This document shows positions 5,612 through 55,904 of a DNA stretch of 64,000 bases, piece by piece. The stretch is from a virus: positions 1 to 64,000 of the IMG/VR virus record IMGVR_UViG_3300032298_001038, one strand, 5' to 3'. Every line of letters begins with the position of its first letter. Position 1 is the stretch's first letter. Below the pieces are notes generated by a model. That model did no database searches, was not told the DNA's origin, and saw nothing but the letters and a program-made list of their open reading frames with translations. The position numbers and the translations under genes are program-made.

Positions 5612-5640
5612 GATTAGTGCTCCTTTGGTATTTATACGGC

Positions 5641-6567
5641 TCAGACAAACGTTACCTTCGCCAAACCATTCGTGTGGCCGAACGAGCCGCCTTGCGTGTT
5701 GTACGCAAAGTACTCAAGCATGAACGCTTCACGACGGATGTACATCGTGGTCGGTTCCAGTTCGTAGTTCTTGCCGATGAACTTCGGCGAGGCGAACATG
5801 TACAGCACATCGTTCGGAACGAGGTTCCGCTTGATCGTCACGATCCAGCGGCAGTTGAGGAAGTTCGTCTCCGCCCAACCGTTCTTGATGATGTCCTGCG
5901 AGAAATCACCGCCCATCTCGTCGCGGCCGAACTTCAGCAGTTCCTTGATGGTGATGTTATTCACCAAGCAAGTCTCCACTTCGAAGTGGCTGGGCGTCGA
6001 GGGCATAACCTTCAGGGCGTCAACGATCGTCTCGCGGGTGATCCCGCCCGAGATCGTGACGTTCTGCGGCACGCCGGACAGCGCGTTGTTGGTGTCGGCA
6101 GTACCGACGGCCACGTCGAGCGCCGTGATGAACTTGGAGTCCTCTTCGGCCAGCATGTCCTTGATCATGTTGTCCGACAGAACCTGACGGATGTCGATGA
6201 CGTACGTGCGCAGTTCGTCAACGTCCTTAACAGCGCGGGGCGACACGATCCGGTCAAACATGACGCGGTAGCGCGGGCCACGGATGTAGAAGTTGATCGG
6301 AAGCGTCGCGAACGGGAGCGACACGGCCGCCGGGGAATCGGGTTCCTTGTCGACAACCTTCACCGGCTTGTCCGTGTCAACCTGACGATCGAGTTCGTCG
6401 TTGGTGATGGTCAGCGGGGGAAGAATACGACGGTAGAACCCGTCTTCACGCATCTTGGTGCGCGTGAAGTCATTAACCGCATCAATGGCCTGCTTCTGCA
6501 TGCCGGGGGTATCAAGTTGCTCAAAAAGCGTCTCGTTGAGCAGTTGAACTTCTTGCTGAGTGGGCAT
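5641..6567 (-). CDS. Major capsid protein (HK97/encapsulin-like fold)
   Basis: About 308 aa, downstream of protease, scaffold and decoration genes; HK97-like pattern (spine-helix region QVLSDNMIKDMLAEEDSKFI, C-terminal beta strands). The start is likely MPTQQ, not MEV. Confidence 0.8.
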   Translation of the reverse strand: MPTQQEVQLLNETLFEQLDTPGMQKQAIDAVNDFTRTKMREDGFYRRILPPLTITNDELDRQVDTDKPVKVVDKEPDSPAAVSLPFATLPINFYIRGPRYRVMFDRIVSPRAVKDVDELRTYVIDIRQVLSDNMIKDMLAEEDSKFITALDVAVGTADTNNALSGVPQNVTISGGITRETIVDALKVMPSTPSHFEVETCLVNNITIKELLKFGRDEMGGDFSQDIIKNGWAETNFLNCRWIVTIKRNLVPNDVLYMFASPKFIGKNYELEPTTMYIRREAFMLEYFAYNTQGGSFGHTNGLAKVTFV

Positions 6568-6571
6568 TGTA

Positions 6572-6587
6572 AAGACCTCCATGTCTT
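6572..6587 (-). promoter_or_regulatory. CsrA/RsmA-type hairpin over the MCP Shine-Dalgarno
   Basis: AAGAC-ATGGAG-GTCTT. Confidence 0.6.
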
Positions 6588-6605
6588 CTATTAGGGTTGG
6601 TTAGT

Positions 6606-7199: not shown

Positions 7200-7201
7200 T
7201 G

Positions 7202-7219
7202 TTAGACCTCCATGTCTAA
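7202..7219 (-). promoter_or_regulatory. CsrA/RsmA-type hairpin over SD
   Basis: TTAGAC-ATGGAG-GTCTAA. Confidence 0.6.
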
Positions 7220-9041: not shown

Positions 9042-10502
9042 TCATGTGACATAATTTTGCAGTACACAGTGGTTTGCTGTCAACAAGTTATTCCGGTATT
9101 TTTCACTGGCGGCAGCGTAAGCAGCAATCTTATACAAAGCGTAGTGCTTCGCAAGAGCAGTTTCTGCGTTTGTGCTGGCCCGCTTTTCTGTCTGAGGTTT
9201 TACAGGTTTAACGTTACGAATTGCGGCTAAATAGGCACGTTTTTCAAGGTTATCGATTAACGTGCTGTGCGTACGTGCAACCTTTTCGGCCCAAAGCCTT
9301 ACGGAGTCTGACGCGCTATCTGCCGGATAAAACTTGTTGTTTTCCAACGAGGAAACGATGTCTTCTTCTGCCGCGAGTTTCGAAAAAACGTTTGGCAGCG
9401 CGTTTGTCACTGCCTCAACGAGTTCAACATTAGCAGATTTGACCGTAAGTGCCAAGAAATCCCTTACAGACAGGATGACTCCGGCGTCGGCTAGTCCGCG
9501 TAATACCTCCGCCATTTTAGCAAATGGACAGGCGTTTATATCAAGCGCAGGCTGTACAGACGGGTGCGCGGCGAGGGCCATCTGAGTCCAACCGTTGGGA
9601 TTGTTAACAGATTCTTGCTCGGCTTGCGCCAGTTGTTGCAGGGCGTTGAATTGCTGCGCGGCGCGCTTCGACGCCATGGCCGAATCCAGACCGTACGGCA
9701 TCGTGACGCCCAGTTGCTCGGCCAGTTCTGCGCCTGAAACCATGGTTCCCGCAGACGCCGCTTTCTCCAACCGGCCCGATACGTAAGCGATACGGTCCGC
9801 CGGGCGGAACACGTGAGAAATGTCGAAAAACGAGCACTTGATGTTGTCGGCGTGGAGGATGTGGCCGTCCTCCAACACCCGGCCCATGTGGTGTTTTAAA
9901 CCGCCGGCTTTGCAGTGCCCGCCGTTCTCAATCGAGTCGCAGTATTCGGCGCGGGTGCGGGCTTTATTGCCGCAAGACGAACAAATATCAAAAGGGATTT
10001 TGCACGCCATGGAAACCGGGATGTCCTTGCCGGAACCCAGTTTTTCCATCTCTTTGTCGGCCAGCAAACCGCCGTTACGGTCGGCGGCCTCCTTCGAGCC
10101 GTTCAGCGCGCAGATCAGTTCGATCCGCTTCATCGGCTCGTTGTAGTACGACGCCTTTACAATGCCGAAACTCTTGGCCGGATTCTTGTTGGCGTGGTCG
10201 CGGTAGAATCGTGCAAACTTTTCAAACGTGTGATGATCTTTTTTGCACGTGTCGCGGCTAAAGCCGTCGCCGTTGCGGTTCGGGCCGTAGTCTTCAGTAG
10301 CACCAATAGCGATCAGGTGCACAGGAACTTCATCTTTTGCGAATTTAATGTGCGATACCTTTTCGACAAACTCGGCTCCGGCGCGCTTTACAAACGCCTG
10401 CTTGTCGTGGCCTATGATGCCGCGATTAGATACTTTAATCAGCGCGGCGACCGGCTCGCTGAAGTCCTGCGAGTTCGGCTGAATAACTTTGATCATGCTC
10501 AT
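9042..10502 (-). CDS. Putative prohead maturation protease with Zn-finger insertion and C-terminal extension
   Basis: FYRDH and VSMAC candidate His/Ser; CKIPFDICSSCG...C...C; canonical position upstream of scaffold and MCP. Confidence 0.65.
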   Translation of the reverse strand: MSMIKVIQPNSQDFSEPVAALIKVSNRGIIGHDKQAFVKRAGAEFVEKVSHIKFAKDEVPVHLIAIGATEDYGPNRNGDGFSRDTCKKDHHTFEKFARFYRDHANKNPAKSFGIVKASYYNEPMKRIELICALNGSKEAADRNGGLLADKEMEKLGSGKDIPVSMACKIPFDICSSCGNKARTRAEYCDSIENGGHCKAGGLKHHMGRVLEDGHILHADNIKCSFFDISHVFRPADRIAYVSGRLEKAASAGTMVSGAELAEQLGVTMPYGLDSAMASKRAAQQFNALQQLAQAEQESVNNPNGWTQMALAAHPSVQPALDINACPFAKMAEVLRGLADAGVILSVRDFLALTVKSANVELVEAVTNALPNVFSKLAAEEDIVSSLENNKFYPADSASDSVRLWAEKVARTHSTLIDNLEKRAYLAAIRNVKPVKPQTEKRASTNAETALAKHYALYKIAAYAAASEKYRNNLLTANHCVLQNYVT

Positions 10503-20896: not shown

Positions 20897-20897
20897 A

Positions 20898-20913
20898 TTT
20901 ACCTCCATGTAAA
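20898..20913 (-). promoter_or_regulatory. CsrA/RsmA-type hairpin over SD
   Basis: TTTAC-ATGGAG-GTAAA. Confidence 0.6.
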
Positions 20914-23900: not shown

Positions 23901-25347
23901 CAAGCGCCGCGACCATCGGCAGGTCCGACTTGTCCTCGCCCGGGAACATGAGCGGCATGTCCGCCAGTTCTTGCGGCGTCTTGTACTCCGTCTCGCCGGT
24001 GTTGGCGTTCTTGACGGGCACCACAAACGTGTGCAGGTTGTTGCCCAACTTGCGCGCCCCGGCAGCGAAGCGCATGTCTACGCCCACCTTGCCAGACTCC
24101 GGCGTGCGGAGATAGTCGATAAAGCCGAAGTGGCTGGGCTGCACGCTGCGCGACTCCGCCGGCACGGCGTCCAGCGAGCCGATGCCGCCTTCGCCGAGCC
24201 GGGTCACGCGCGTCTGGTGGTCAAAAATTTCAGCCGGGTTGATTTCTTCGAGGCTCGACCCCAATCCCGAGCCAATGAGCGCCGCGGTGATCGACTTGTT
24301 AAAGATGCCGCTGGGGATGTGGTCCAGCGTCTTCTTCGCGGTGGCTTTCCAGAGCAACTGCCGCAGGGCCGACTTGTCTTTCACGAACCGTTCCGATATC
24401 AAATCTTCCGGGCCAAAGACTTGCTGGAACGTCATGCTATCGCGGTCGTCGCTTTCGGCTTCCTTGCGATTGACCGCGATAAGTTTTTTGGTGATGTCCA
24501 GAATGGCGTCTGGCGTCAGATTCTTGTACGGCGTGCCCAACGTGCGCTTCGTAACCTCTTCGTCCAACTCCGTCTTGGCAAACTCCGCGGCGATAGCCTT
24601 GATCTTGGCTAACTGGTCCGCTGCCGGGTCTGGCTTAAATACGAGCCGGCTGTAAAGTTTATCCAGCGTGCCGGCGTCGCCTTTCTGCATGTTTACGGCG
24701 GCGATCTCGTTGCCCCACGCTTCCCGTATCTGCTTTTCTTGCACGCCGAGTGTCTTCAGCAGCGGCATGAGCGGAATCTTAGCCTGCCCGATCTGGATTT
24801 GAAACTCGCCGGTTTTGGGGTCCATGTAATAACGGTGCGAGCGGCCTTTGCCGGGCAGCGTGTTAACGTGCGATTCCAGTTCGCCGTTATCTTTCTCGCG
24901 CGTGAACACGCCCGGCCTGAGTCGCAGTTGATGTGCCAGCGTGTATTCGACACCTTTGTTTACAAACGTACCTGAGTCGGTCAGATATGGCACATTTGCT
25001 ATCGTAGCCTGTCGCGAAGCGACAGGCTTTTCCGAGCCATTTTCTATTAAAGTCCACGTGCCCGTTAACTTTCGGGCAAGTGTGCCGCGAGTTAATACAG
25101 CCTTCTTTTGATCTTTACGCGAATAGCGCTCAGGCCCCGCGTAACCCACGTTCGTGAGTTTAAGGGTGTAAAGATCGTTCTGGATCGGCTCAATGCCTGA
25201 CGCAGAACGCAGCGCCTCGTTAAAGATGTTATCGCGCAGGGCGTTAATATCGCCGAATGCGCGGGTCTGTTGCTGCGGAGGAGCAAGAGGCGGAAGAGCC
25301 GGAACTGTCTGCGGTTTCAGCGGCGGCAAGGGGTCGGACATGGTCAC
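20917..25347 (-). CDS. rpoB-rpoC: RNA polymerase beta subunit fused to beta' N-terminal half (catalytic DFDGD)
   Basis: beta motifs GTFVNKG, RTPESGKVG, GDKITGRFGDKG, KLHH...KRVGMLE, followed by beta' motifs KGGLFD, VLPPAFRP, NRAPVLHR, GADFDGDAM; no Cys. Confidence 0.95.
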   Translation of the reverse strand: MTMSDPLPPLKPQTVPALPPLAPPQQQTRAFGDINALRDNIFNEALRSASGIEPIQNDLYTLKLTNVGYAGPERYSRKDQKKAVLTRGTLARKLTGTWTLIENGSEKPVASRQATIANVPYLTDSGTFVNKGVEYTLAHQLRLRPGVFTREKDNGELESHVNTLPGKGRSHRYYMDPKTGEFQIQIGQAKIPLMPLLKTLGVQEKQIREAWGNEIAAVNMQKGDAGTLDKLYSRLVFKPDPAADQLAKIKAIAAEFAKTELDEEVTKRTLGTPYKNLTPDAILDITKKLIAVNRKEAESDDRDSMTFQQVFGPEDLISERFVKDKSALRQLLWKATAKKTLDHIPSGIFNKSITAALIGSGLGSSLEEINPAEIFDHQTRVTRLGEGGIGSLDAVPAESRSVQPSHFGFIDYLRTPESGKVGVDMRFAAGARKLGNNLHTFVVPVKNANTGETEYKTPQELADMPLMFPGEDKSDLPMVAALVNGKIKYVPRKDAQYTVPNMDNTFSSLTNMVPMKSMVKGQRVIMGSRMFTQALPLENAESPFVQSAKFDGDGSVSHEDEMGEKLGAIKSQVGGQVVAVTPDEMIIRDKDGQKHTIDLYNDMPFNRKTFWTQTPTVKPGDVVKPGQLIATSNFTDKGGAAALGLNLRVGYTPFRGRNYEDAVVISESAAKKLTSQHMYQHEAEWDDNTHVGKKAFVSLFPSEYDKKMLENFDDNGAIKKGTIVNFGDPLVLVAKKRDQVYGKVHRGRAGAFANETMTWEHHSPGVVTDVEHTKKGVSVVVKSKSQMEVGDKITGRFGDKGVVSEIVPDNQMPQDGQGRPLEILVSPLGLINRVNPAQIIEAALGKVSEKTGQPFKIKDFDNDNDLVEMAAAELAKHGLTDTEDLIDPETGRKIRGVLTGNRFFMKLHHTAESKGQGRSIGGYTAEGTPAKGGSEGAKRVGMLELGALLSHGAGKVVRDAKMVRGQANPEYWTQFMAGYDPPLPKVPHVYEKFVNQLRGAGVNAVRTGSKTHIMALTDKNVEELAGDREIQNAETVDWKGNLKPVKGGLFDETLTGGHNGNRWSKITLHEPMPNPIMEEPIRRTLGLTEKKFRAVLAGQEKLGNKTGPTAIHEALKSVNLPRAIEQARADIKSGRKTLRDAAVRRLAFLKGAEATGVHPKDWMQTKVGVLPPAFRPVSTMGAKKMQLIDDANYLYKELLESNNVLKEASGLLSDVGGERLSLYDSMKAVSGLGDPQHPKNVERNVRGFLSKIFGDSPKFGTMQRKLLSSTVDLVGRAVISPNPDLDMDEVALPEDKAWDIYKPFVVRGLIRRGMPRMNAMRAVEERNKEAFAELNTQMNAKPIVINRAPVLHRYGVMAFYPRLTKNKVMEVNPVITKGFGADFDGDAMQYHVPSTEEAAKEAVEKMLPSKNLFAASNFKAHYVPNKDYQTGVYLASSKVNNKSKPRVYRTKKDALAAYRRGDIDVDTPVHIVEDKA

Positions 25348-26372
25348 ACCCCTTGGTCGTCATGCGGTTCTTTCGTGGCAGCCACGTCTTTGACCTGCGC
25401 TAATTCCTGCGGATCAATCCAGACTGGCATTGTGTCTTTCATGCGATCCTTGGCCGCCAGAGCCTTGGCCAGATTCTTCGCTGAGGACGCGGCCATGGTC
25501 TTGTCATACATGTATTTGCCGCCGATCAGGCCGCCGCCGAGCGTCGCGCCAGCGGCTGCCACGCCGTACATGTTGGGCAAGTCGTGAAAAATGGACTTAA
25601 GGATAGGCAAACGAGACGGATCAACGTAGCGGAGATAATCCGACCAGTCGGCTTTCTTTTCGGTATACACGTCATAGGCTTGATCGAGCATGTCGGTAAC
25701 CGAGGACTTCTTCTCTTTTTTGCTATCTTTGTCGTCGTCCTTCAGCAACTCATCAAAATACTGCCGGCGAGCGGACTCAACGTTGTCATATTGTTCTTTT
25801 TTCTTCTCGGCTTCGGCGTACGGCTCAGCGGCCATATCGTAAAGCGTCTTTCCGCCCAGCACGCCGAGACCAGCGCCGCCAGCGTTCATCATCGCGTTCC
25901 AGCCGGTATATCCAGAACCGCGATTAAAAAGCGGCTTACCTAAGATCGGCTCCAAAAACGGGAGATACGAGCGCGGCGTGTTCTTGCCCAAAAACTCGTG
26001 AACAGGCTTGGTGTTTAAACCCGCGCCCACGCCAGCACCTGCAAGCCCGCCCAGCAACGCATTCCGCTTCTTCGTCTTCTCGTCCGACAACGCAGACGCC
26101 AAGATCGCACCAGCCGCGCCGCCAACAGCCGGCGCCGCAACCGTATACGCGTCAAAAGCCAATTTCTTTTGCTCAGGAGCCGGCAGTAATTCAGGCGTAT
26201 CAAGCGCGACGTCATTGTAGTCGGGCGTTACGGGCTTGCTGCGCGCCAACTGATCTTCAAAGCGCTTCCGCAGTTTCTTGGCCAAGTAGTACAGCCCGGT
26301 GGCCGAAGCCCCGACGCCGGTGCCTAACAGGACATTGTTAAAGATTTCTTTGCCGTCTTCTGCGTAGCCCAT
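25344..26372 (-). CDS. Gly-zipper virion protein (Cys-free, K-x-A sites)
   Basis: Several GxxxG hydrophobic helices; KKLA, KKSS and EKKA. Confidence 0.65.
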   Translation of the reverse strand: MGYAEDGKEIFNNVLLGTGVGASATGLYYLAKKLRKRFEDQLARSKPVTPDYNDVALDTPELLPAPEQKKLAFDAYTVAAPAVGGAAGAILASALSDEKTKKRNALLGGLAGAGVGAGLNTKPVHEFLGKNTPRSYLPFLEPILGKPLFNRGSGYTGWNAMMNAGGAGLGVLGGKTLYDMAAEPYAEAEKKKEQYDNVESARRQYFDELLKDDDKDSKKEKKSSVTDMLDQAYDVYTEKKADWSDYLRYVDPSRLPILKSIFHDLPNMYGVAAAGATLGGGLIGGKYMYDKTMAASSAKNLAKALAAKDRMKDTMPVWIDPQELAQVKDVAATKEPHDDQGV

Positions 26373-33602: not shown

Positions 33603-33872
33603 CTATTTCGACCGGAAGCCGAATATGCCTTTAATAAACCGCACAGTGCCGCGCAGCAAAAGATACAGCCACGCGATAAAGCCGCTGATAGCAAAAAAAA
33701 CAATTGCCGGGACGCTCACGAATACCGGCCAGAGTTCCTTTAAGTTTACCTGACGCAGCGTTAACCACACACGCATCCACGGCGTACGATTCGGACTATC
33801 ATCGGGAATTGGCGGGATTACAGGCTGCGGGTCGGTCTTTTTGGGTTTTAACCAGCCGTCAATCCAACTCAT
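33603..33872 (-). CDS. Small membrane protein
   Basis: C-terminal TM helix. Confidence 0.6.
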   Translation of the reverse strand: MSWIDGWLKPKKTDPQPVIPPIPDDSPNRTPWMRVWLTLRQVNLKELWPVFVSVPAIVFFAISGFIAWLYLLLRGTVRFIKGIFGFRSK

Positions 33873-35836
33873 TTCGGCCTCCCAAACACTGTGTTCATGA
33901 AACTATCGCCGTAGCGTCCAATGACTTGGTCGACCATCGGCTCTTCTTCCATTTCATTGTTCATGGCTTTCATGGCCAGTTGATACCGGTAGTTGGGATC
34001 AAGTGTCGCCATGTAGCGCTGCTGGTTGATTTTGGCGTTGCGCATGAAGTCGCCGCGCTGTTTCACCTGCATTAACTGCTCTTGGATGTTTTCGGCCACT
34101 GTTTTGTCGTAGTTGTATGTCAGCGGCCGGTTTAACCCGTAAGAGTTGTATAGCGCGGTGGCATATGCGCTCCGGGGCTGACGATATGCGGCTTTGACAG
34201 ACTCAGGGATCGCGGTTGGCTCGACGTGGAACCGGAACTTCGTCGGCTTGTGCGTAATTCCCTTGTGGTACGGCTTCGGGTCGTCTACGTGCCAGTCTTT
34301 AGGCGCTTTAGCCATGAGCCGCCGCAAGATTTCAGTTTTGTGCGCGTACCTTTTGTTATCTGAATGGTCTTTAGCCGCGCGGAGTTCGTCGAGAATGCGC
34401 GCTTGGGATTCCGCCTGCTTCTTTTGCTCTTCTTGCTCGTCTGGCTGCTGGGGGTTCGGTAACTGCTGCCCTGACGGCGGAAGTGCGGGCGGAGGAACAA
34501 CACCGAAAGCCACGTCGTTTGTTACCGGCGGAGGCATTTCGGGCGGCGCAGTCAGGTCTTCGGCTAGTTCTGGCGGCTTTGGCGGTTTGGGAACTGGCGG
34601 AAGTGCAGGATTGTTGGCTGCTTTTTCAATCGCTTCTACTTTTTTGTAGTAGGACGCGTCTTCTTGCAGATGATCTTTGGCAATTTCTTTGGCGACTTGA
34701 CCATTGTTTGTGTGTTCGTGCTCATGCTGCGCTCCTGCGGCTAATGCTTTCTGAGAAATTTCCCGATCGGGAACATTGTCGGCTTTTCCACCCGGTAACA
34801 GGTCTTTTTGTCCCGAGCGGGAAAGTTTTGTTCCCGTACGGGCAAATTTTGCGGCTTTCTTTAACGCCGGCGCCAATAATGCTTTAATGTCTGGCCCCAT
34901 ATAGTCGGCGCCTTCGGGCAGTCCATGCGAAAGCGTGACCACAGCGTCAGAACCAACACTAGCGTTAAAGTTTCCGGGTTTGAGTTTGTGCTTGGGCAGT
35001 TCCAGATAATGCTCGTGCTGCCATCCTTCGCGCGGATCGTTACCTAAAGCGCGGAAAGCGGTTGGTTTGATTTTCACGCCGAGTTCTTCGAATAACTCAC
35101 GCGCAGCAGCCTGTTCTGGTGTTTCGCCCGTTTCGATACCGCCACCGATAAATCGCCGTTTGCCGATGTTTTCCGGCCACTTCGAGTTATTGAGCGTTTC
35201 CATCAAATACTGGTCTTTGTACGGCACGACGACGCGCACACGGGGCTGCGGGCTTTTAGCGGCGGCGGCTTTGCGCACACTATTGGCCTGCAACACGCTT
35301 TTCCGGCGCACGGCAACAGTAATGTGGAACGGGTGGCCATTTACGAACGGCTGCAACCCGTAACTCTTGCGAATAGCCGACAACATGGGCGACGAGACTT
35401 GCAGCGCCCATAACTTGCTGACGCCGTCGACATTCCGGGGGGTGATCTCTTTCAGGTGGCCGAGGGAGTAGCCAACCATGTGCCCGCGTTCGTTGATATT
35501 CTCCGGGCCGATCTTTTTGACTTCATCGGCAGTCATGACGGAGATATGCGCGTTCAAGACGTCGCTGGCTACGTTGGGCACGTTCATGGTGCCTGCCAGC
35601 GGAAGTTCGGCCCCGGGGGCAGTCATCGCGTCGTAGATGCCCCGGACAAGCGCGTTCGGGACGGAGAGAAGAAGCCAGCCGCTTTTGGCGACATACAGCC
35701 GGCCGGCGAGGGCGTGGCTGGTGGCGGCTTGTTTTTCATTACGCGCAAGCCAGCCGACAGCGTTGCCGATGCTGTATTCGCGTTGGGAGTTCAGCGGCTC
35801 GCGCCATGAACCGTCAAGAATAGAAAAGCCGTCCAT
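33869..35836 (-). CDS. Polyprotein: 2H phosphoesterase + Nudix hydrolase + DUF5661-like + two unknown modules
   Basis: HISV/HITV 2H motifs; complete Nudix box GGIETGETPEQAAARELFEELGV; EHEHT...IAKDHLQE...YYKK; K-x-A at each junction; no Cys. Confidence 0.85.
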   Translation of the reverse strand: MDGFSILDGSWREPLNSQREYSIGNAVGWLARNEKQAATSHALAGRLYVAKSGWLLLSVPNALVRGIYDAMTAPGAELPLAGTMNVPNVASDVLNAHISVMTADEVKKIGPENINERGHMVGYSLGHLKEITPRNVDGVSKLWALQVSSPMLSAIRKSYGLQPFVNGHPFHITVAVRRKSVLQANSVRKAAAAKSPQPRVRVVVPYKDQYLMETLNNSKWPENIGKRRFIGGGIETGETPEQAAARELFEELGVKIKPTAFRALGNDPREGWQHEHYLELPKHKLKPGNFNASVGSDAVVTLSHGLPEGADYMGPDIKALLAPALKKAAKFARTGTKLSRSGQKDLLPGGKADNVPDREISQKALAAGAQHEHEHTNNGQVAKEIAKDHLQEDASYYKKVEAIEKAANNPALPPVPKPPKPPELAEDLTAPPEMPPPVTNDVAFGVVPPPALPPSGQQLPNPQQPDEQEEQKKQAESQARILDELRAAKDHSDNKRYAHKTEILRRLMAKAPKDWHVDDPKPYHKGITHKPTKFRFHVEPTAIPESVKAAYRQPRSAYATALYNSYGLNRPLTYNYDKTVAENIQEQLMQVKQRGDFMRNAKINQQRYMATLDPNYRYQLAMKAMNNEMEEEPMVDQVIGRYGDSFMNTVFGRPK

Positions 35837-46101: not shown

Positions 46102-46620
46102 TTACTCACTGCACCGAAAAACCATCGAGTACCGTAATGCGCTGACGGGTTTGATTTCGTGCTGCCACTCGTAGCGAATCTCGTTCCGCATCTGCACCAG
46201 ACTGCGCGGCGGCAACTCCACTACGATGTCGGCTTCGTCCTGTTTTGTAAATACCATTGTGGCCGGGGATGCCAGACTCAGCACCGTGATCACAGGACCA
46301 GCCTGCATCGGATCAATGTGCGGGCGAATGACTTGCCCCGGATAATACTCGTTTATTGTAATCGAATCGGGCTTTACATGCGTATGCTGGGCCTGCGCTA
46401 ATTTCACGCACAGCCAGTCGAGGTGCGCGGGAATTTTCCCGTCCAGCACGTCTTTAAACGGCTTGGGAGACCCGAAGCGCACGATCGCGTTTCGGTCCCG
46501 CACGCCAGTTCTGGGCCGGTCGGGCATGTACACCCGAATGTGCAACAGCAGTTCGGCTTCTTCCGACGGCGTAATAAACTCCGGATACAGCACAAGGCCA
46601 AGCGCGACGTGGTTTTTCAT
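46102..46620 (-). CDS. AlkB-like 2OG-Fe(II) dioxygenase
   Basis: INEY.PGQ.I.PHID...HEI...RYSMVFR. Confidence 0.85.
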   Translation of the reverse strand: MKNHVALGLVLYPEFITPSEEAELLLHIRVYMPDRPRTGVRDRNAIVRFGSPKPFKDVLDGKIPAHLDWLCVKLAQAQHTHVKPDSITINEYYPGQVIRPHIDPMQAGPVITVLSLASPATMVFTKQDEADIVVELPPRSLVQMRNEIRYEWQHEIKPVSALRYSMVFRCSE

Positions 46621-46624
46621 AGCA

Positions 46625-47251
46625 TTATCGCCGGGGAATGGGCGGCAATAACTGCGAGTTGGGTACGGCACCCTTGGCCAGATTCGTGTTCGCCACTGGA
46701 ACGCGATTACCCTGATCGTTCATGATGGTGGGATTGTTGGGGTTCGCCGCGTTGGCCGGCGGGACGGGCGCAGGCCGCGGCTGTTGGGGTTTCGGCACAG
46801 GCGGAGCCGCGGGCGGCTGCGGCGCTGCGGGCGCTTGTGGCGCGCCAGCCTGCTGCTGCGGCAAGCCTTGCACCGACGACAGCGGCGGTTTGTAGCCCGG
46901 CTTACCCTGCTGCGCAAACACGGGGTTATAGCGCTTCCCCGTATTCGTCGCGAACGTGCGCATGTTGTTAAATGTCCGCACATGCTGCGCCATCGGGCCG
47001 CGCATCGGGCGAGCCTGCGGCGCCTTGGCGAACTGCTGATTGATATGCCAGATGTCACGCGCGCTGGCACCTTGCAACTGCTCAGCGGACATATGCGGCA
47101 ACCCAGCGTGCTGCCACGCTTCGGCCGGCAAGTTTAACTTCGCATAGCGCTGCCGGAGCGCGTTGTAATCAGGGTCGCCGGGCGCGCCAGTGTCGGGCAC
47201 GCTCGCGGCGATCTTCTGGCGCAACAGCAAGCCAAACTTAAAAGCATTCAT
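46625..47251 (-). CDS. Pro/Gln-rich Cys-free protein
   Basis: N-terminal AFKFGLLL..KIAA motif. Confidence 0.6.
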   Translation of the reverse strand: MNAFKFGLLLRQKIAASVPDTGAPGDPDYNALRQRYAKLNLPAEAWQHAGLPHMSAEQLQGASARDIWHINQQFAKAPQARPMRGPMAQHVRTFNNMRTFATNTGKRYNPVFAQQGKPGYKPPLSSVQGLPQQQAGAPQAPAAPQPPAAPPVPKPQQPRPAPVPPANAANPNNPTIMNDQGNRVPVANTNLAKGAVPNSQLLPPIPRR

Positions 47252-47531
47252 CGTCGCTCTCTGTATAGTTCGGGGACTTCTCGTGGTCTTGTTCGGGGCG
47301 GCAATGCCCGCCGTCGCAGCAGGTCTCGTTGATCGTCCGGCAGCGGGAGCAGACCATTTTGCCGCGCATGTCCATCAGATCGCCGCCGCAGACATAGCAG
47401 GTAATCATTGTAACATACTCCTTACTGCCGCGGACGTGGCGGGGAAGATACGGGCAGTTCACGCATTTGTTTCCGCAGCAGACTCCGTGTTGTAAAAGCA
47501 CCTGCCGGGAAAGCGGAGCGGGCCGCGTCAA
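47238..47531 (-). CDS. Cys-rich zinc-binding protein
   Basis: CCGNKCVNCPY (DUF5522-like) plus CxxC...CxxC...CC. Confidence 0.55.
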   Translation of the reverse strand: MTRPAPLSRQVLLQHGVCCGNKCVNCPYLPRHVRGSKEYVTMITCYVCGGDLMDMRGKMVCSRCRTINETCCDGGHCRPEQDHEKSPNYTESDDECF

Positions 47532-47875
47532 ATGTGCGCGGTGGTGAATCGCTGCTCGTAGGCTGCATAAATTTCAGCGTACGCCACGCCCCACGCCGCG
47601 TCGTGAGCGAGTTTATTAAAAGCCTCGTCCGTGGCGGCGTTGTCCAGCCGGTGATTCCACGCCCGGGCATGTGCCCACTCATGGATCAATACATCCATGG
47701 CGCGGCTCTCGTCCAGACCCTTGTCGATCTGGATGTGAAACTTTTTCCCCTGTTTCCAGCAGCGCCCTTCAAGTTTTGTTAACTTGACGCGGCGCACACT
47801 GACGGGGAACGCTGCGGCGCACTCATCCTTGAGCATCCGCAGGAGAGACTGGTATTGTTTAAATCGAGCCGCCAT
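47528..47875 (-). CDS. Small zincin-like metallopeptidase
   Basis: LIHEWAH (HExxH) and a downstream H. Confidence 0.6.
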   Translation of the reverse strand: MAARFKQYQSLLRMLKDECAAAFPVSVRRVKLTKLEGRCWKQGKKFHIQIDKGLDESRAMDVLIHEWAHARAWNHRLDNAATDEAFNKLAHDAAWGVAYAEIYAAYEQRFTTAHI

Positions 47876-47949: not shown

Positions 47950-50319
47950 TTACAGGCCAAATTGCGCCCGCAACCACGCATTTGCAACGGGATTTTGGGC
48001 TGTTTCTTCCGGCTCCGCGTCCAAAATACTTGATATCTTTACGCTCGGACCCTCGGGCGGAGGAGCGCCACCTTCTTCACGGAGAATGCGCCGGAACGCC
48101 TCGTTGATCTCTTCTTTCTCCGCGGTGAGTCGTTCCAGTACTTCGTCGCCGGTGCGCTGGCGTTTGGCGCCGAATAAATACTTCCCGATCAGGCCCGGCT
48201 CAGTCGATTCGGTGAGGTACCGCCGGACAAGCACGTTGCGCAGGTCTTCAGGCAGTCCCGCGTGGCTGTCAAAGCGCAGACCACGGCCGCGGGCTTGTTG
48301 GCTGCGGGCTTCGTTCCAGTGCGGGTCCAGAAGTTGAATTAAACTCGTGCCCTTCGTGCTAATCCCTTCCGCCGCGGCCGGCCCGAGAAGCAGGGCTTTG
48401 CTGCGCCCTTCGTTGTAGTCTTTCAGGGCTTTCTGCCGGTCTTTCAAGGGGATGCCGCCATGAAACACGCCATACGGAATCTTGTCCCGTTCAAGGGCCG
48501 CAGCATAGGGGTTCACGCCCGAATCAATGAAGTTCGAGTAGATGATGGCTTTCTTGCGCGGGTCTGATTTAATCGTCTCTTGAAAGTCCTGATACGCCTT
48601 TTGCATCTTGCTGGACTGCTCGAACGCCTTGATCGGATTCTTGTCTTTGCGGAACGCCTGCGTGGACAAACTCACTTGGCGCAGGCCGTTCAAGAACGAG
48701 TTCATCTTGGCCAGTTCTTCGCGCGACAGTGGGAACTCTTGGTCTAACTTCCACAAGAAGCCGGGCGGAATGCGCGTGCGAATGGCGTTCTGAATCTTCT
48801 GCTGTGCGTCGGACATCGGCACGCGCACGATCTCTTCATTAACGTTCACGCCTTCAGGAGTCTTGCTGGGGTGATAGTCCACTTTGCCCTTGAGCAGTTC
48901 ACGCAGTTCGTCTTCGTTCTTGACGTAGGCTTTCTCGCCCGGCTTTGCGCCCCTGAACCAACCCAACCAGCCCGGGCCGACTTTCTTGTAGCCCACGTAC
49001 TTCTCTTCGAACTGCTCCGGAGAAATCTTCTGGTTGTTCAGCATCGAGAGCAGGCTGGCCAAGTCGGTCGGCGCATTGGTGATCGGCGTGCCCGTGAGCA
49101 AGAGTAAACGCTTGGCTTGGCGCGCGGCCTCTGTAGCCGCGCGGGTGCTGGCGGCGTCGGGATTACGTAACCGGGCAGCCTCGTCCATGATCAGCGTGTC
49201 GGGCGGCTTCTTGAACTGCTTGCCCAAACCCAACCCGGTGTAACTCATGATCTCAGGCTTGGACCCGGTCGTGAACTTGTCGATCTCTTTCTGGAAGTTC
49301 GCGCGCAGACTCGCCGGGACCACGACGCCGTAGTCTTCTTGATATTTTTGTTTGGCGGCTTCGGCAGCAGCAATAGCCGAGAGAGACTTGCCGGACCCTA
49401 GGCCGTGATAGACCAGTAAGCGCGGGTCGTCGCCGGTGAGTTTGTCGGCAATGCGCTGTTGGTGCTCTTGGAGTTGGACTTCTGGTAATAAGTCGGCTTG
49501 CTTTTCCGGTTGTTCGTGTTGAATGTACTTAGCCGGAATTTTCTGCGTAGTGTACTGGTCGGTCATGAGCATATTGAGCGGCCACGGAAACAACGGCTGC
49601 ACAGCAAAGTCATCAGGGAGTTCTACTTTCAAGCGCGCGTCGCCGTACCCAGAGTTCAACTGCGGATGTGTGGCTAGAAACACCCGACGTTCGTAACCCG
49701 GAATGTCGGTCGGGACGCCGGAGTCAGCCCCAGTACCAGCAAATTCCGGGTCAAGACCGCGCTCCAAAATAGACTTGAGGTTTTTGCTGGCGGTGCCGTG
49801 ATAAAACGTTTTTGCAGCCTGCTTCTGCTGCGCCAGATGCCGCTGCGTGGCTTTGGTCTTGTACGCGTCCAGCATCTCGGCAACGCGCTGCTGCTCTTCA
49901 GGCGACACGAGCGTCGTCGGGTCAATTGCCCAGTTGCGCAGCGCCCAGCCGCGTCGGGGTGTGGGGTTCTTGGCAAACGGACCGCCATGGCGGGCTTTGA
50001 AACTCAGCCAGCGCTTGATCTGCCGGGTGTCTTCGTCCGGGATTCTGCGGCCACTGGTGTAACGCTTGTACCACTGCGCCCAGCCCTTGGGATCGTGCTC
50101 GCTGACCCATTCAGGCTTCCACTCGCCAAGACTGGCTAACCGCGGGCCTTGGCCGCGGTACAGCGCGTCGTACACGCCAAGGTTCTCCAGTTGCTCCGGG
50201 GTGTAGTCCGGCGCAAACGCGGCGTCGAGAGCCTGCAACTTCTCCGTGGCTGTCTTCAAGATAGCAGCCGGAAGATAGTCCGCGTCCAAGATAGATTTGC
50301 TGGGCTGCCTACTTGTCAT
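47950..50319 (-). CDS. Polyprotein: unknown domain + ADP-ribosyltransferase-fold domain + SNF2/SF2 helicase
   Basis: DPKGWAQWY.RY..GRR...D..QI.RW; YHGT...SIL..GL...VFLA...IP.KYI; HGLGSGKS, DEAA, TGTP and QARGRGLR; KQA at both junctions; no Cys. Confidence 0.85.
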   Translation of the reverse strand: MTSRQPSKSILDADYLPAAILKTATEKLQALDAAFAPDYTPEQLENLGVYDALYRGQGPRLASLGEWKPEWVSEHDPKGWAQWYKRYTSGRRIPDEDTRQIKRWLSFKARHGGPFAKNPTPRRGWALRNWAIDPTTLVSPEEQQRVAEMLDAYKTKATQRHLAQQKQAAKTFYHGTASKNLKSILERGLDPEFAGTGADSGVPTDIPGYERRVFLATHPQLNSGYGDARLKVELPDDFAVQPLFPWPLNMLMTDQYTTQKIPAKYIQHEQPEKQADLLPEVQLQEHQQRIADKLTGDDPRLLVYHGLGSGKSLSAIAAAEAAKQKYQEDYGVVVPASLRANFQKEIDKFTTGSKPEIMSYTGLGLGKQFKKPPDTLIMDEAARLRNPDAASTRAATEAARQAKRLLLLTGTPITNAPTDLASLLSMLNNQKISPEQFEEKYVGYKKVGPGWLGWFRGAKPGEKAYVKNEDELRELLKGKVDYHPSKTPEGVNVNEEIVRVPMSDAQQKIQNAIRTRIPPGFLWKLDQEFPLSREELAKMNSFLNGLRQVSLSTQAFRKDKNPIKAFEQSSKMQKAYQDFQETIKSDPRKKAIIYSNFIDSGVNPYAAALERDKIPYGVFHGGIPLKDRQKALKDYNEGRSKALLLGPAAAEGISTKGTSLIQLLDPHWNEARSQQARGRGLRFDSHAGLPEDLRNVLVRRYLTESTEPGLIGKYLFGAKRQRTGDEVLERLTAEKEEINEAFRRILREEGGAPPPEGPSVKISSILDAEPEETAQNPVANAWLRAQFGL

Positions 50320-50554
50320 AAAAGTTATCCGTGACTTTCAGCAGCGCCAGCAACCCCAGAATAGCCGAGAGCAGGCCGAGATATTTAGCCCATGTGAAGA
50401 TCGTGGCGAACCAGTAGATACCCAACCAAATCGCCATCCCCGCAACGAGAATGGCCAAGATATTAAAATGCCGCCACGCCAATACGTACGCGATCGGCCC
50501 GCAAAGAAAGACGGCGCAGAACAGGCCGAAGACTAACAGCGCCAGACTCTCCAT
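50309..50554 (-). CDS. Multi-TM small protein
   Basis: Hydrophobic throughout; start MESLAL. Confidence 0.6.
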   Translation of the reverse strand: MESLALLVFGLFCAVFLCGPIAYVLAWRHFNILAILVAGMAIWLGIYWFATIFTWAKYLGLLSAILGLLALLKVTDNFYDK

Positions 50555-50556
50555 GA

Positions 50557-50652
50557 CTAGCCTCGCAGATACAGCAGAAACCACGTCAACGTTCCGGCCA
50601 TGGTTGCCGCCAGCGTTGCCATCGTGAACAGGAATGTGTTTAAGTGCTTCAT
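50557..50652 (-). CDS. 31-aa membrane peptide (not in ORF track)
   Basis: SD GGAGG; MKHLNTFLFTMATLAATMAGTLTWFLLYLRG. Confidence 0.45.
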   Translation of the reverse strand: MKHLNTFLFTMATLAATMAGTLTWFLLYLRG

Positions 50653-50664: not shown

Positions 50665-51531
50665 TTATTTGGGGTCATCGGGCAGTTTGAACTCGACTAC
50701 TTCGAAGTCCAAGGCTGCTCCCGTTGTCGCCCGTGCGGCCAGCGCCAGTTCGTACTTCTCGATCTGCGATTCTACCCAATTGGCGTATAAACTGACACGG
50801 GTAAATGCACTTTCGTCGCCATACGTGCCGTCGGGTTTCTTATCAACCGCCATGAGAAAAGAGTTAATACCGGCGAGTTCATTGCCGATAAACATCCCGC
50901 CGCCCGAGTCGCCCGGCGAGATCATAAACTCCAGCGGAAACCGCCCAGCACCCGTGGTGGGCTTGCAGACTAATACCCCACGCTCCGTGCCTTCGACAGC
51001 GTTATGCCCAGCCCGTTTCTTGCCGTCAGAGAGCGTGCAGCCGGTGTGAAACGTGCCCGTCAGGCCGTAGCCGGCAATGGTGATCGCCTTGCCCAGTTCG
51101 TCCTGCTTTTTGTACAGCGCCGGGTAAAAGTCCAGTTTAAAATCCTTGGGCGAGTAGCACAGCGCCAGATCGTAAAAGCCGATGTTATCGCCATTAAATT
51201 CCTTGGGTACGATGACGTCGTTGAGCACGTACACGTCGTCGTTGTCTTTGATCACCGCATGAACCGTGGCGCCTTCGACCACGTGGGCGGCGGTGAGCAC
51301 CCAATTGGGCCTAATGATTACGGCCGACCCGTACTGGACGGCCGGCCGTGTCTTGCCCGTGTCTGTGTCAGGAATCTCGCTAATCGCCCGGTAGCGGACG
51401 ACCGACGGAAACTGCTTGCCAAAATCTTGGTACTTGCTGTCGGGCGTGTTCGGGTCGCGGGTTCCGGCGTGTAGCCCGTCAAGTGCCGACAGAAAAAATA
51501 ACAACGTTGTCAGTAGTGCGCGAATAAACAT
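50665..51531 (-). CDS. Secreted trypsin-like (S1) serine protease
   Basis: Signal peptide; TAAH, DLAL and GDSGG catalytic triad. Confidence 0.9.
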   Translation of the reverse strand: MFIRALLTTLLFFLSALDGLHAGTRDPNTPDSKYQDFGKQFPSVVRYRAISEIPDTDTGKTRPAVQYGSAVIIRPNWVLTAAHVVEGATVHAVIKDNDDVYVLNDVIVPKEFNGDNIGFYDLALCYSPKDFKLDFYPALYKKQDELGKAITIAGYGLTGTFHTGCTLSDGKKRAGHNAVEGTERGVLVCKPTTGAGRFPLEFMISPGDSGGGMFIGNELAGINSFLMAVDKKPDGTYGDESAFTRVSLYANWVESQIEKYELALAARATTGAALDFEVVEFKLPDDPK

Positions 51532-51607: not shown

Positions 51608-52339
51608 TTACAGCCGCCGCAGAATTTGCGCGACCAACGGGTGTCGCACGACGTCTCCGGGGGCGAATTCGTGGACGCCAATGCCCCTGACGCCGCGCAA
51701 CTTATTGACGACTTCGAGCAGGGCCACGCCGTCCGGACGATGGCCGCCGGGAAGATCACTCTGCTGCGGGTCGCCTGTGACGATGACCTTGGTATTGACT
51801 CCGACGCGCGTCAGAAAGAGTTTCAGTTGCGTGTAGTGCGCGTTCTGGGCCTCGTCGAAAATACAGATAGCATTGTTGAACGTCCGGCCGCGCATGTAGC
51901 ACAGCGGCGCGAGCACGACCGCCTTGTTGATCGCCTCGCGGGCCGCTGACTGCTTGCCCAGCATCTCGTCCATCGCGTCGTACAGCGGCTGCATGTACGG
52001 GTTGACTTTCTCGCCGAACGAGCCGGGCAGAAAGCCCAACTTCTCGCCCGCTTCGACGATCGGCCGGGTGAGCACGATCTTCTCGCACTGCTTGGCGAGC
52101 ACCGCTTTGATCGCGTGCGCCATGGCCAGAAACGTCTTGCCCGAACCAGCCGAGCCGAGCAAGAACGTGATGTCGTTTTCTTCGACGAGTTTAACTGCGG
52201 CTTCTTGTGATTTCGTGCGCCAAACAATCTCAACCGACGAAGAAACATTTTGCTCTTGCTTGGTTCTCCGCGTCTGTTTCCGTTGTTCTCGCCGCGCGGC
52301 CTTGTTGGCTTTGCTGGCGACACGTTTGGCCATGGTCAC
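51608..52339 (-). CDS. phoH: PhoH-family ATPase
   Basis: GSAGSGKT, RPIVEAGEKLGFLPG, YMRGRT, DEAQN, GD..QSDL. Confidence 0.95.
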   Translation of the reverse strand: MTMAKRVASKANKAARREQRKQTRRTKQEQNVSSSVEIVWRTKSQEAAVKLVEENDITFLLGSAGSGKTFLAMAHAIKAVLAKQCEKIVLTRPIVEAGEKLGFLPGSFGEKVNPYMQPLYDAMDEMLGKQSAAREAINKAVVLAPLCYMRGRTFNNAICIFDEAQNAHYTQLKLFLTRVGVNTKVIVTGDPQQSDLPGGHRPDGVALLEVVNKLRGVRGIGVHEFAPGDVVRHPLVAQILRRL

Positions 52340-53198: not shown

Positions 53199-55904
53199 TT
53201 ACATCACGCGGGCGCCCATTGTGGAGTTGAAGTTCGTGGGGCCTTGGCTCAGTCCGGCCGCGGGAGACGCCGACGGCATCGGCCCGGGCGCCGGAGACTG
53301 GACCGGCATCGAGTTCTGTAATGCAGGCGCCGGAGGGACACTGGCGCCCATTGTCGCGCTGGCATCCGCCGGGCCTTGCGGAATTACCGGCGATTGCGGT
53401 GCAGGATTCTTCGCGGCTTCAGCCTTGGCGGCCTCGACCAAGTCAGGCTGCATTGTCGCGTCGGTTGAAATACCCTTTTCAGGAGACCCGGCGCCTTGCT
53501 GTTTCGAGGCCAGATGCGCCTCTAACAGCGCACGAATCTTATCGCCGCCGAAGTAGCCAGCCGCACCGCCAGCCGCCCCGCCGACGGCCGCGCCACCAGC
53601 CAAGCCACGCAGCGCGCCCATCAAACGAGACCGACGCTTACGCCGGCCAGTCATCGGGTCTGTTTCGTGTCCCGGAGCCAGCGCGCCAAACAACGCACCG
53701 CCAGCGCCGAGCGCGGCGGCACCCGCACCTGCACCAAGGCCAGCGTCGCCCAAGTTGGCTGTCTTTACTTCAGGCTTTTTCTTCTTGGCGTCGTTCTTGC
53801 CAGCACGGCTTCCCAGATACGCGGCGCCACCAAGGAGACCTGCTGTTCCCAGACCAGCCGCAGCATACGGCGTGTACTTCGAGTTCATGATCTGCTGGAG
53901 CATTCCCGGCTCATCGCGCAGCGCCATATTTCCCAGCGCGCCAAACAACGCACCGCCAGCACCAGCAGCGCCTACGCCGCCTGTGATCTTGGCCCATTGC
54001 GGCAGCGCGTTCAGGCCTTCAGCAGCCCGACCGGCGTAACCCTTCGCGGCGTCTAACCCAGTGGTTGCAGCGCCAGAAGCGTTACGCCCCAGCCGTTGCA
54101 GCCGCGCCATCATGCGGAGATACGTGCTGATGGCCTGCTTTTCCATCGGATTGTTCGTGGCCTTCGTCAACGCGTACCAGTTCATACTTGCAGCCTTGGG
54201 CATCTCGTAGTCTCCTTCGTCTTCTTCACGTTGCGGGCGCTTCTTTTTCTTGTTACGGCGCGATAAATAATCAGCCAACGCAATGGCACCCAAACCACCG
54301 GCGCCAATCGCCGCATAGGGAGCGTAGGGCTTAAGTTGGTCGAGCATGGACGGCGGCGGGGGAGCGTCGGGCTTGAGCCACTTGAGCAAGTTACTGCCCG
54401 CGCCCATGCCAGCCCCCACAGCGTCCTGACCCTTCTGGCCAATGAAACTCAGCGCACTGCCGATGCCCTTACCGGCACCGATGCCCATGCGCTTGGCGGT
54501 ATCGAGGTTCTTGTTGAAGTACTCCCAATACACCTTGTCGTTCAGTTTTTCTTCCGCCGAACGGGGCCGAGAGACAGCCCCAGTGCCAGACGACGCCGAC
54601 ATGTCGGGGATCATCGCCGGCGGACGCCACTTGCCGCCGCCACTTGCAGCCGGAGCACCAGCAGGAGCCGGCGCATCAGCCATGTTGATTGGCAGGCCAG
54701 TCGTGGGCGAGATCGGCATGCTGGCGCTCGACGGGTCAAAGCCCGGAGGCGCGCTCATGGCCAGACCGGGCGAGGGCGGAATGCTTGCGCCCATCGTGGC
54801 ACTGGTGTTCAAGTCAGCATGCTTCTTGAGCAGTTCAGCGTAAGCCGCCATCTTCTCGGCCAGCGTCAGCGTTGTGTTATTTAAAAGCGCGTGGGCTTCC
54901 TTCTTTTTCGTCGCAGGAATGTTACCGTCTTCGTCTTCTGCCGGACCCACAAGCGCGTCGGCTAACGCTTTGCCGCCAGCGTGACCAGCCATGCCGCCGA
55001 ACGTGCCACCCACGCCGGCGCCCAGCGTCGCAGCATTACCGACGTTCGACAAACCTTGGTAACTCTTCGGCGCGCCGGTCAGGCCGATGACGGCGCCGCC
55101 ACCAAGACCAGCACCCACGGGAAGTCCGGCGCCAATGCCGAGTCCAGTTCCGGCGCCCATGAGCATTCCGCGGGCCATGCCGCGCAGTTTGTTCTTGGAG
55201 GTAACCGCGCCAGCAGCACCACCCACTGCGCTCCCGAGAACGCCAGTGCGCAAAAGGTAATTCAGCAGCAATTGGGTTTCGGGTTTCATCGCCTGCTTCT
55301 CGTTCTCGCTCATGGAAACATCCTTGTTAATACTCGATGATTTGTGTCGTTCATTATAGCGGGCACGTGCATCCGCCATATCAGAAGTTCGCTTACTAAA
55401 ACGTTCCGTGGGCCTGTAATATCTGGCCCGCGCGGTGGCTACGATCTTGTTGTTATCCCAGCCCAGAAAGTCGGCTTGGTACTGCGGGTCGGCTTCTAAG
55501 TCTCGCTTCGCGGCGCCCTCGGGCATTCTCCGCATGAGTTCTTCTAAACCTTCGTTCTTGGCTTCTCGGTCCATGCCGGCTGCAATGGCGGCCAAGCCAC
55601 CGGCGCCCAAGCCGCCGATCAGCGCGCCCATTCCCGAGTAACCTTTGCCGTCTGAACCGTGTGCAGTACCACCGATTGCGCTGCCGATTCCAGCCCCAAG
55701 TAACCCCGCCGGCACGCCAAAGATCAGGCCAGTCTTCAGGGGGCTGGCCATGAGGTCGGGAATCGGCGTCCCGTAACTCTGGAAGATGCGCGGCAGCCAG
55801 CGTTTCTTGCCGGCTTCCAGTGCGTCCTCCTCGTGGGGCGCTAACGTTCGGTGCGCCGAGATGTCAGGAATACCGCTCTCGGCACGTTTAATTTTCTCAC
55901 TCAT
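53199..55904 (-). CDS. Large modular Gly-zipper polyprotein (Cys-free)
   Basis: At least 6 K-x-A sites separating hydrophobic GxxxG modules; repeated SATMGASxPP motif. Confidence 0.7.
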   Translation of the reverse strand: MSEKIKRAESGIPDISAHRTLAPHEEDALEAGKKRWLPRIFQSYGTPIPDLMASPLKTGLIFGVPAGLLGAGIGSAIGGTAHGSDGKGYSGMGALIGGLGAGGLAAIAAGMDREAKNEGLEELMRRMPEGAAKRDLEADPQYQADFLGWDNNKIVATARARYYRPTERFSKRTSDMADARARYNERHKSSSINKDVSMSENEKQAMKPETQLLLNYLLRTGVLGSAVGGAAGAVTSKNKLRGMARGMLMGAGTGLGIGAGLPVGAGLGGGAVIGLTGAPKSYQGLSNVGNAATLGAGVGGTFGGMAGHAGGKALADALVGPAEDEDGNIPATKKKEAHALLNNTTLTLAEKMAAYAELLKKHADLNTSATMGASIPPSPGLAMSAPPGFDPSSASMPISPTTGLPINMADAPAPAGAPAASGGGKWRPPAMIPDMSASSGTGAVSRPRSAEEKLNDKVYWEYFNKNLDTAKRMGIGAGKGIGSALSFIGQKGQDAVGAGMGAGSNLLKWLKPDAPPPPSMLDQLKPYAPYAAIGAGGLGAIALADYLSRRNKKKKRPQREEDEGDYEMPKAASMNWYALTKATNNPMEKQAISTYLRMMARLQRLGRNASGAATTGLDAAKGYAGRAAEGLNALPQWAKITGGVGAAGAGGALFGALGNMALRDEPGMLQQIMNSKYTPYAAAGLGTAGLLGGAAYLGSRAGKNDAKKKKPEVKTANLGDAGLGAGAGAAALGAGGALFGALAPGHETDPMTGRRKRRSRLMGALRGLAGGAAVGGAAGGAAGYFGGDKIRALLEAHLASKQQGAGSPEKGISTDATMQPDLVEAAKAEAAKNPAPQSPVIPQGPADASATMGASVPPAPALQNSMPVQSPAPGPMPSASPAAGLSQGPTNFNSTMGARVM

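Follow-up and report, generated by a model that had tools for sequence, protein, structure and literature searches.

The first 64,000 nucleotides of the IMG/VR virus record IMGVR_UViG_3300032298_001038 (this whole stretch is called the window below) carry, on the minus strand, a long open reading frame (ORF) for a modular helicase protein of 789 amino acids. From its N-terminus, a leader ending in K-T-A is followed by a conserved domain that we call D1, a K-Q-A joint, a module with the predicted fold of the ADP-ribosyltransferases (ARTs), a second K-Q-A joint, a SNF2 core and a tail (Table 1). The source record is 198,312 bp long, its first 123 bases recur as its last 123, and its completeness rating is 100%. 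The phage is a complete, uncultured member of the Arash-like group, named here after Salmonella phage Arash, and its minus strand carries nearly all of its genes. The ORF and the motifs on which a preliminary description of the protein was built are all present (KTA; GWAQWY at residues 79-84 and RQIKRW at 99-104, both in D1; the two KQA joints; YHGT at 173-176; and GLGSGKS, DEAA and QARGRGLRFDSH in the helicase), and the limits proposed there for D1 and the ART-fold module agree with blocks defined by homologues: a minimal form of the protein (P0030, 621 amino acids), made of D1 and helicase, covers residues 31-166 and 252-750 in alignment, leaving out the middle module. Compared with this minimal form, the 789-residue protein has one extra module, with KQA on both sides.

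Table 1. Positions in the window of the parts of the 789-residue protein and of other features discussed in the text
Feature	Position	Strand	Remarks
Modular (polyvalent) helicase protein, whole ORF, 789 amino acids, no cysteine	47950..50319	-	ATG start, no internal stop
N-terminal leader, residues 1-24	50248..50319	-	SILD at 9-12; K-T-A end at 22-24
D1, residues 25-165	49825..50247	-	conserved all-alpha domain (GWxQWY...GRR...RQIKRW)
K-Q-A joint 1, residues 166-168	49816..49824	-	
ART-fold module, residues 169-272	49504..49815	-	homologue of Tpt1/KptA NAD+ lobe
K-Q-A joint 2, residues 273-275	49495..49503	-	
SNF2-family ATPase core, residues 276-750	48070..49494	-	
C-terminal tail, residues 751-789	47950..48069	-	second SILD; terminates in AWLRAQFGL
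Minimal zincin, 115 amino acids, HEWAH	47528..47875	-	conserved downstream neighbour; candidate processing peptidase; SprT-like below Pfam cut-off
Small membrane-protein ORF	50309..50584	-	stop overlaps helicase start codon
Trypsin-fold serine protease	50665..51531	-	signal peptide; Met at S1 specificity position; conserved upstream neighbour
Major capsid protein	5641..6582	-	K-Q-A at residues 30-32; 30% identical to Arash gp226
Candidate prohead protease, S78/S77-type	9042..10502	-	homologue of virion protein Arash gp222; language-model atlas only

The modules of the protein

The C-terminal part is a generic SNF2 ATPase. It exceeds the gathering scores of both relevant Pfam models (SNF2-rel_dom, 46.8 bits with a cut-off of 24.9; Helicase_C, 51.6 bits with a cut-off of 23.5), matches phrog_62 with an E value of 1.7e-46, and contains motif I (GLGSGKS, residues 306-312), motif II (DEAA, 379-382), motif III (TGTPITN, 409-415), a WNEA at 668-671, and motif VI (QARGRGLRFDSH, 675-686, with the arginine-rich QARGRGLR at 675-682). 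A profile of the family covers the whole cores of solved SNF2 ATPases, including Sth1, Chd1 and ISWI, and finds its best solved match in residues 60-438 of SsoRad54 (1z63_A; E 2.9e-19). How close does this bring it to NPH-I of poxviruses, to which the helicase had been likened? Motif VI does have the form QxxGRxxRxxSH of the NPH-I group, as was claimed, and the C-lobe block EGIS...WNEA...QxxGRxxRxxSH is identical at 22 of 59 positions to residues 438-496 of vaccinia NPH-I (E 1.1e-3). With the family profile, however, NPH-I (residues 29-496) comes seventh at E 9.8e-15, with SsoRad54, Chd1, Rad5, Rad54 and Sth1 ahead of it; the same profile reaches VETF-s at E 4.3e-8 and RapA at E 8.7e-6. What stands of the comparison is the SNF2 ATPase and its motif V-VI block, whereas a specific kinship with NPH-I is not supported, as SsoRad54 and chromatin remodellers score equally well or better; on these alignments the likeness is a local resemblance rather than a demonstrated relationship.

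The middle module is confirmed, by its modelled structure and by profile comparison, as having an ART fold that is closest to Tpt1/KptA, which upholds the earlier assignment. Sequence matches to the PARP and Tpt1 models of Pfam are sub-threshold (PTS_2-RNA, 14.5 bits with a cut-off of 26), as is that to NF002014 (20.7 with a cut-off of 239). An AlphaFold model based on 27 sequences (predicted local distance difference test score, pLDDT, 81.8) retrieved with Foldseek, among the matches listed, only proteins of the ART superfamily, and with a profile of the module the PDB matches were all to Tpt1, the best at E 4.7e-5. In all 23 relatives of the module H174, T176 and I184 are invariant, and they align with H101, T103 and I111 of Clostridium thermocellum Tpt1 (CthTpt1), which contact NAD+ (PMC6333775). 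In 22 of the 23, F or Y stands at position 214, a candidate for the aromatic second position of an H-Y-E type triad. Enzymatic competence of the predicted module is plausible.

Membership of Tpt1/KptA itself was considered and rejected, as the RNA lobe and the arginine cage are absent and the family models stay below their cut-offs. [quoted passage not shown] Nor is the arginine cage of the NAD+ lobe (R121, R139 and R140 in CthTpt1) conserved: GLDPEF is followed not by Arg but by an inserted loop of about 18 residues, and neither R212 nor R229 is conserved in the family. The family is small, with 16 matches among 1.84 billion representatives and 14 in a second search, mostly to large multi-domain proteins or to short unannotated metagenomic ones; two of them carry DUF6321.

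D1 is a genuine and widespread domain, and nothing marks it as an enzyme. It has 206 stand-alone relatives of about 110-240 amino acids and is modelled very confidently as all-alpha (pLDDT 94.7). Trp and Arg are frequent among its 17 invariant residues and suggest that it has a nucleotide or a nucleic acid as ligand. No clear match to a solved fold was obtained, and neither D1 nor this Tpt1-lobe ART family stands under any name in the libraries searched. A language-model feature search placed nearest to D1 clusters from phages, giant viruses and bacteria; a resemblance to proteins of nucleocytoplasmic large DNA viruses and fungi, suggested earlier, is thus partly borne out, in that clusters with giant-virus members are among the nearest. 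The description of the protein as a polyprotein of three enzymes is not supported, since D1 has neither a catalytic signature nor a known fold. D1 and the ART module each occur only once in the source genome.

The stand-alone D1 genes give no consistent operon across the five bacterial loci examined (TGT/UvrB, FolE, Fpg/RuvA and others, TGT being tRNA-guanine transglycosylase), although in three of the five they lie near UvrB, Fpg, RuvA or TGT. On one bacterial contig (L070/L071:3757-7624) the D1 gene begins three bases past the TGT gene and lies ahead of uvrB. A link of D1 with 7-deazaguanine was entertained and then dropped, as the contexts differ across the five loci. In a more distant phage of 189 kb (L078:405-10486), stand-alone D1 and DUF6321 genes are flanked by pieces of the RNA polymerase genes, and there is no SNF2 gene within 5 kb of them.

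A constant chassis with exchangeable cassettes

At about 70% identity, the helicase is common to more than 450 relatives, encoded on contigs that cluster near 200 kb. The family counts given here (lengths, position of D1, joints and tail) refer to 120 of these relatives that were listed. Their proteins range from 547 to 1380 amino acids. D1 stands at the N-terminus in 102 and at the C-terminus in 13, and five lack it; the inserted modules also include NUDIX, a P-loop kinase, DUF4269, DUF6321 and a second one with YHGS. A leader ending in K-T-A-A-E-K-L is common to close relatives (best BLASTP alignment 65-92% identical, with five of the six listed at 81-92%), so that the leader of the 789-residue protein is found ahead of different first modules: behind it there may be no module at all, D1 with or without ART, ART without D1, a kinase or the YHGS module. 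The C-terminal tail occurs only in the closest subgroup (11 of the 120). In one related contig (L077) D1 is a separate gene that overlaps the stop of the helicase gene and is followed by the same small zincin as in the window. Together these relatives show a constant chassis (leader, SNF2 ATPase and C-terminal tail) with swappable cassettes, and as such shuffling is the defining behaviour of polyvalent proteins, the 789-residue protein has the several effector-type domains, and the shuffling of domains, by which that class is recognized. Modules are also held in common with two other multi-module proteins of the source genome (33869-35836 and 57064-58845). The second of these (minus strand) has 593 amino acids, 16 cysteines and a C-terminal DUF6321; among the relatives, the DUF6321 module is found on the C-terminus of the helicase (P0009, P0072) or on the ART module (P0262, P0263).

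Where modules meet, a K-x-A is found: all the module borders inspected bear KQA or one of KTA, KSA, KKA and KEA, and K-x-A stands within 12 residues upstream of the helicase core in 112 of the 120 relatives. One protein (P0011) has joints at 163, 510, 672 and 856, flanking its NUDIX and kinase modules. For the 789-residue protein alone the excess of K[QT]A is weak (three, with 0.67 expected; P = 0.03), but in 8,475 residues of non-redundant variable sequence from the family KQA occurs 19 times against 4.4 expected (4.3-fold), a number reached in none of 1000 shuffles. Because the two KQA copies of the 789-residue protein differ in their codons, the constraint acts on the protein, and a repeat at the DNA level flanking the ART insert was rejected on the same ground. 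In many relatives (P0022, P0023, P0026, P0029, P0033, P0025, P0009 and P0095) the helicase core is also followed by K-T-A and then by A-x-x-F-G, and in those it is therefore bounded by K-x-A on both sides; the 789-residue protein has its SILD tail at this place.

A further recurrent motif, S-I-L-D/E, is seen in the leader and the C-terminal tail and also, within linkers, a few residues ahead of KQA. A similar N-terminal tag is seen on three cysteine-free proteins of the phage, all on the minus strand: 33869-35836 (MDGFSILDG...), the 789-residue protein (...SKSILDAD...), and genome positions 178077-178883 (...STPSILGD...). It may be a signal for capsid targeting or processing.

A comparable arrangement is present in the major capsid protein, which was identified by synteny with Arash, PHROG and Pfam searches having failed to find it. 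Its residues 30-32 read K-x-A in every one of 45 distinct N-termini, which are 54-98% identical. The middle residue is Q, R, T, E or D and varies here much as it does at the cargo joints; the Arash capsid protein has KEA at the aligned site. Eight residues ahead of the capsid K-x-A there is a triplet of two hydrophobic residues and an acidic one, echoing the SILD...KQA layout. A shadow ORF on the plus strand (5617-6594) overlies the true capsid gene, so that picking ORFs by length takes the wrong strand here, and likewise for 6597-7205 as against 6606-7199.

Packaging and processing

The 789-residue protein contains no cysteine where 12 would be expected (P = 5e-6), in a genome whose average is 1.54%. 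This avoidance extends through the family, which has 60 cysteines in 101,043 residues, mostly in leaders or in the DUF6321 module; stand-alone D1 proteins average 2.8 cysteines, and in fused D1 those positions are replaced. In the source genome the same property is seen in both chains of the bacterial-type RNA polymerase (18001-19941 and 20917-25347) and in 33869-35836 and 53199-55904, whereas most of its ordinary enzymes are not cysteine-free, and K[QT]A is 3.1-fold denser in the cysteine-free proteins of the genome (Fisher p = 0.001). Further large proteins with no cysteine are encoded at 10511-12418, 20153-20908 and 25344-26372 in the window and at genome positions 139054-140118 and 182339-186502.

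The presence of the helicase in the virion alongside RNA polymerase, which had been predicted, is seen for the Arash orthologue: gp217 was recovered from purified virions at 100% coverage (38 unique peptides), and its 1148 spectra compare with 1210 of beta' and 1333 of the capsid protein (PMC10585845). The gp217 gene directly follows that for beta', and the gene order around the RNA polymerase is common to Arash and the source phage. The helicase gene of the source phage lies outside the head module, but in Pseudanabaena phage PA-SR01 a homologue lies inside it, and a search of PA-SR01 with the 1476-residue beta-type chain of the source-phage polymerase gave no match. This ties the helicase to the virion more firmly than to transcription, and its proposed tie to a phage RNA polymerase is not supported.

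On balance, we lean towards the view that the 789-residue protein is a polyvalent protein carried as cargo in the virion and possibly cut at K-x-A. We infer packaging, cutting and injection along the following lines. The protein would be loaded into the capsid along with the cysteine-free RNA polymerase, and the head-maturation machinery would cut it at the K-x-A joints, the same motif as near the capsid N-terminus. The parts would then enter the host with the phage DNA, where the SNF2 motor might translocate on the incoming DNA, to aid early transcription or to clear host proteins from it, and the ART module might use NAD+ to ADP-ribosylate an early target, either a host protein or the phosphate end of a nucleic acid.

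Several observations weigh against this view. The helicase gene is separated from the polymerase genes of the source genome by 22.6 kb. Arash gp217 lacks D1 and ART and is only 35% identical, and the Arash virion list of 116 proteins includes ligase and primase, so that carry-over is possible (PMC10585845). The capsid K-x-A adjoins a conserved stretch, and its invariance is thus no proof of a cleavage site (a coverage of 86.6% for the Arash capsid protein in virions would allow for a missing N-terminus, but is no firm sign of one); the beta-type chain of the RNA polymerase has no K[QT]A; and the prohead protease was identified by a language-model lead only. In the ART module the catalytic acid, and with it the register with the catalytic Glu, is uncertain: D254 and Q255 are found here, whereas 18 of the 23 relatives have D or E at position 254 and most have H at 255.

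The main rival is a multidomain enzyme that works uncleaved, as a single piece like the DarB-type methylase-helicase proteins of phage P1, packaged or not, in which K-Q-A would be a flexible linker or a joint for recombination between cassettes. D1 is kept with the helicase in 115 of the 120 relatives, which suggests joint work; not every polyvalent protein is processed (PMC5512222); and the linker ahead of the helicase (KQA-D/E-L-x-P-E-V-Q-L-Q) lies itself within a conserved block. Yet the position of D1 at either end of the chain, and its separate gene in L077, fit separable beads better; K-x-A is invariant in the capsid N-terminus, where cassette exchange does not occur; and the differing codons of the joints speak against a DNA-level signal for recombination. 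We regard this enzyme as a possible alternative, clearly less probable than cargo.

At the other extreme, the cargo view might be extended to a distinct system of a freshwater clade of ~200-kb phages, in which cysteine-free and K-x-A-punctuated proteins with an N-terminal SIL-D tag would be loaded, cut into modules and injected. K-x-A might then also serve to mature the capsid protein; the SNF2 motor and D1 would be the constant cargo, serving an injected zinc-free RNA polymerase as a bacterial-virus counterpart of NPH-I; and the minimal ART, derived from the Tpt1 NAD+ lobe, would ADP-ribosylate nucleic-acid phosphate ends and not proteins. We think the extended version doubtful.

The genes around the helicase raise another alternative. 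The order trypsin-like protease, small transmembrane protein, helicase, 115-residue zincin, AlkB-like oxygenase and PhoH is kept in relatives, and the AlkB-like 2-oxoglutarate-Fe(II) oxygenase and PhoH (46102-46671 and 51608-52339, both on the minus strand) are conserved near the helicase gene in L002, L003 and L077. The zincin scores 22.7 bits as SprT-like, with a cut-off of 25.6. Two tiny membrane-protein ORFs (50309-50650, minus strand) lie between the protease and helicase genes, and the stop of the second overlaps the ATG of the helicase (ATGACAAGTAG), which suggests that the two are translationally coupled. The trypsin-fold protein is probably exported; as an unlikely processing enzyme it was rejected, in view of its signal peptide and the Met at its S1 specificity position. 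Megablast of the 12-kb neighbourhood against a phage collection gave no match, and PHROGs searches with 30 neighbouring or structural proteins mostly gave none.

Might the protein, then, be an intracellular helicase for DNA or RNA repair, or for anti-defence, that never enters the virion? The conserved synteny, with its SprT-like zincin, AlkB-like oxygenase and PhoH, would suit a repair-type cluster, as would the best solved relatives of the helicase (Rad54, Rad5 and CSB-type repair motors) and the three bacterial D1 loci with UvrB, Fpg, RuvA or TGT nearby. On the other hand, the RNA polymerase and the other K-x-A proteins have the same near-total absence of cysteine, gp217 is abundant in Arash virions, the PA-SR01 homologue sits among head genes, and the contexts of stand-alone D1 are heterogeneous, so we consider a repair role unlikely. 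About as unlikely is a true orthologue-level relative of poxvirus NPH-I or D6-D11, a factor dedicated to termination or elongation by the virion RNA polymerase: the 22 of 59 identities of the C-lobe block, a family profile that spans the NPH-I core, the Arash gene next to that for beta' with its product in virions, and the D1 gene inside the RNA polymerase cluster of L078 all point that way, but SsoRad54 and five remodeller or repair entries outscore NPH-I and PA-SR01 has the helicase with no match to the beta-type chain.

The relatives of the 789-residue protein offer a natural series of cassette exchanges on one chassis, which could show how phages renew an injected arsenal, and K-x-A, if it is a true cleavage code, could be a means of predicting what hundreds of uncultured jumbo phages carry in their virions. 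There are also two tractable subjects for study, D1 with its confident predicted fold and a minimal ART keeping only the NAD+ lobe of Tpt1. A virion SNF2 motor beside a virion RNA polymerase would parallel poxvirus NPH-I, a parallel that could be tested in the cultured phage Arash.

Comparison with known systems

Arash gp217 is orthologous in its SNF2 core (453 aligned residues, 35% identical and corresponding to 278-717 of the 789-residue protein), is likewise cysteine-free, and belongs to the same group of phages with bacterial-type RNA polymerase. It differs in being a core only, of 472 amino acids, without leader, D1, ART or tail, and in having its gene next to that for beta', whereas the source-phage gene lies 22.6 kb from the polymerase genes. 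Vaccinia NPH-I (D11) and the small subunit of VETF (D6) (PDB 6rfl_Y, 7amv_W) are SNF2-like ATPases that reside in the virion with a multisubunit RNA polymerase, and share with the phage helicase the motif V-VI block with WNEA and QxxGRxxRxxSH; they are not its top-scoring relatives, however, and the C-terminal polymerase-binding region of NPH-I is not recognized in the phage protein. From the RNA 2'-phosphotransferase Tpt1/KptA (PDB 6e3a, 9ldi, 8tfi; PMC6333775) the phage module differs in keeping the NAD+ lobe only.

DarB of phage P1 is also a large protein of the SNF2 helicase type that is packaged in the head, injected, and active on the incoming DNA, but its helicase is coupled to an adenine methylase, which the 789-residue protein does not have. 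Alt and the internal proteins of T4, and the inner-body proteins of phiKZ, are head-packed enzymes, including an ART, that are trimmed at the motif used in capsid maturation; that motif is L/I-x-E or S/A/G-x-E there and K-x-A here, where cleavage is presumed. T4 Alt is usually placed among ARTs of the R-S-E type, whereas the phage module is of the Tpt1 type.

The closest parallel is with the polyvalent proteins, for which packaging in the head and delivery with the DNA were predicted, and among whose domains SNF2 ATPases, ARTs and zincins (MPTases) have been described (Iyer, Burroughs, Anand, de Souza, Aravind 2017; PMC5512222). In both, several unrelated effector domains are combined in one phage polypeptide and shuffled between relatives. 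The arrangement described here differs in its fixed leader and SNF2 core, with cassettes inserted at a K-Q-A joint, in having no methylase partner, in that the zincin is a separate neighbouring gene, and in the near absence of cysteine. The 789-residue protein is thus a variation on the polyvalent-protein theme, not a new kind of system.

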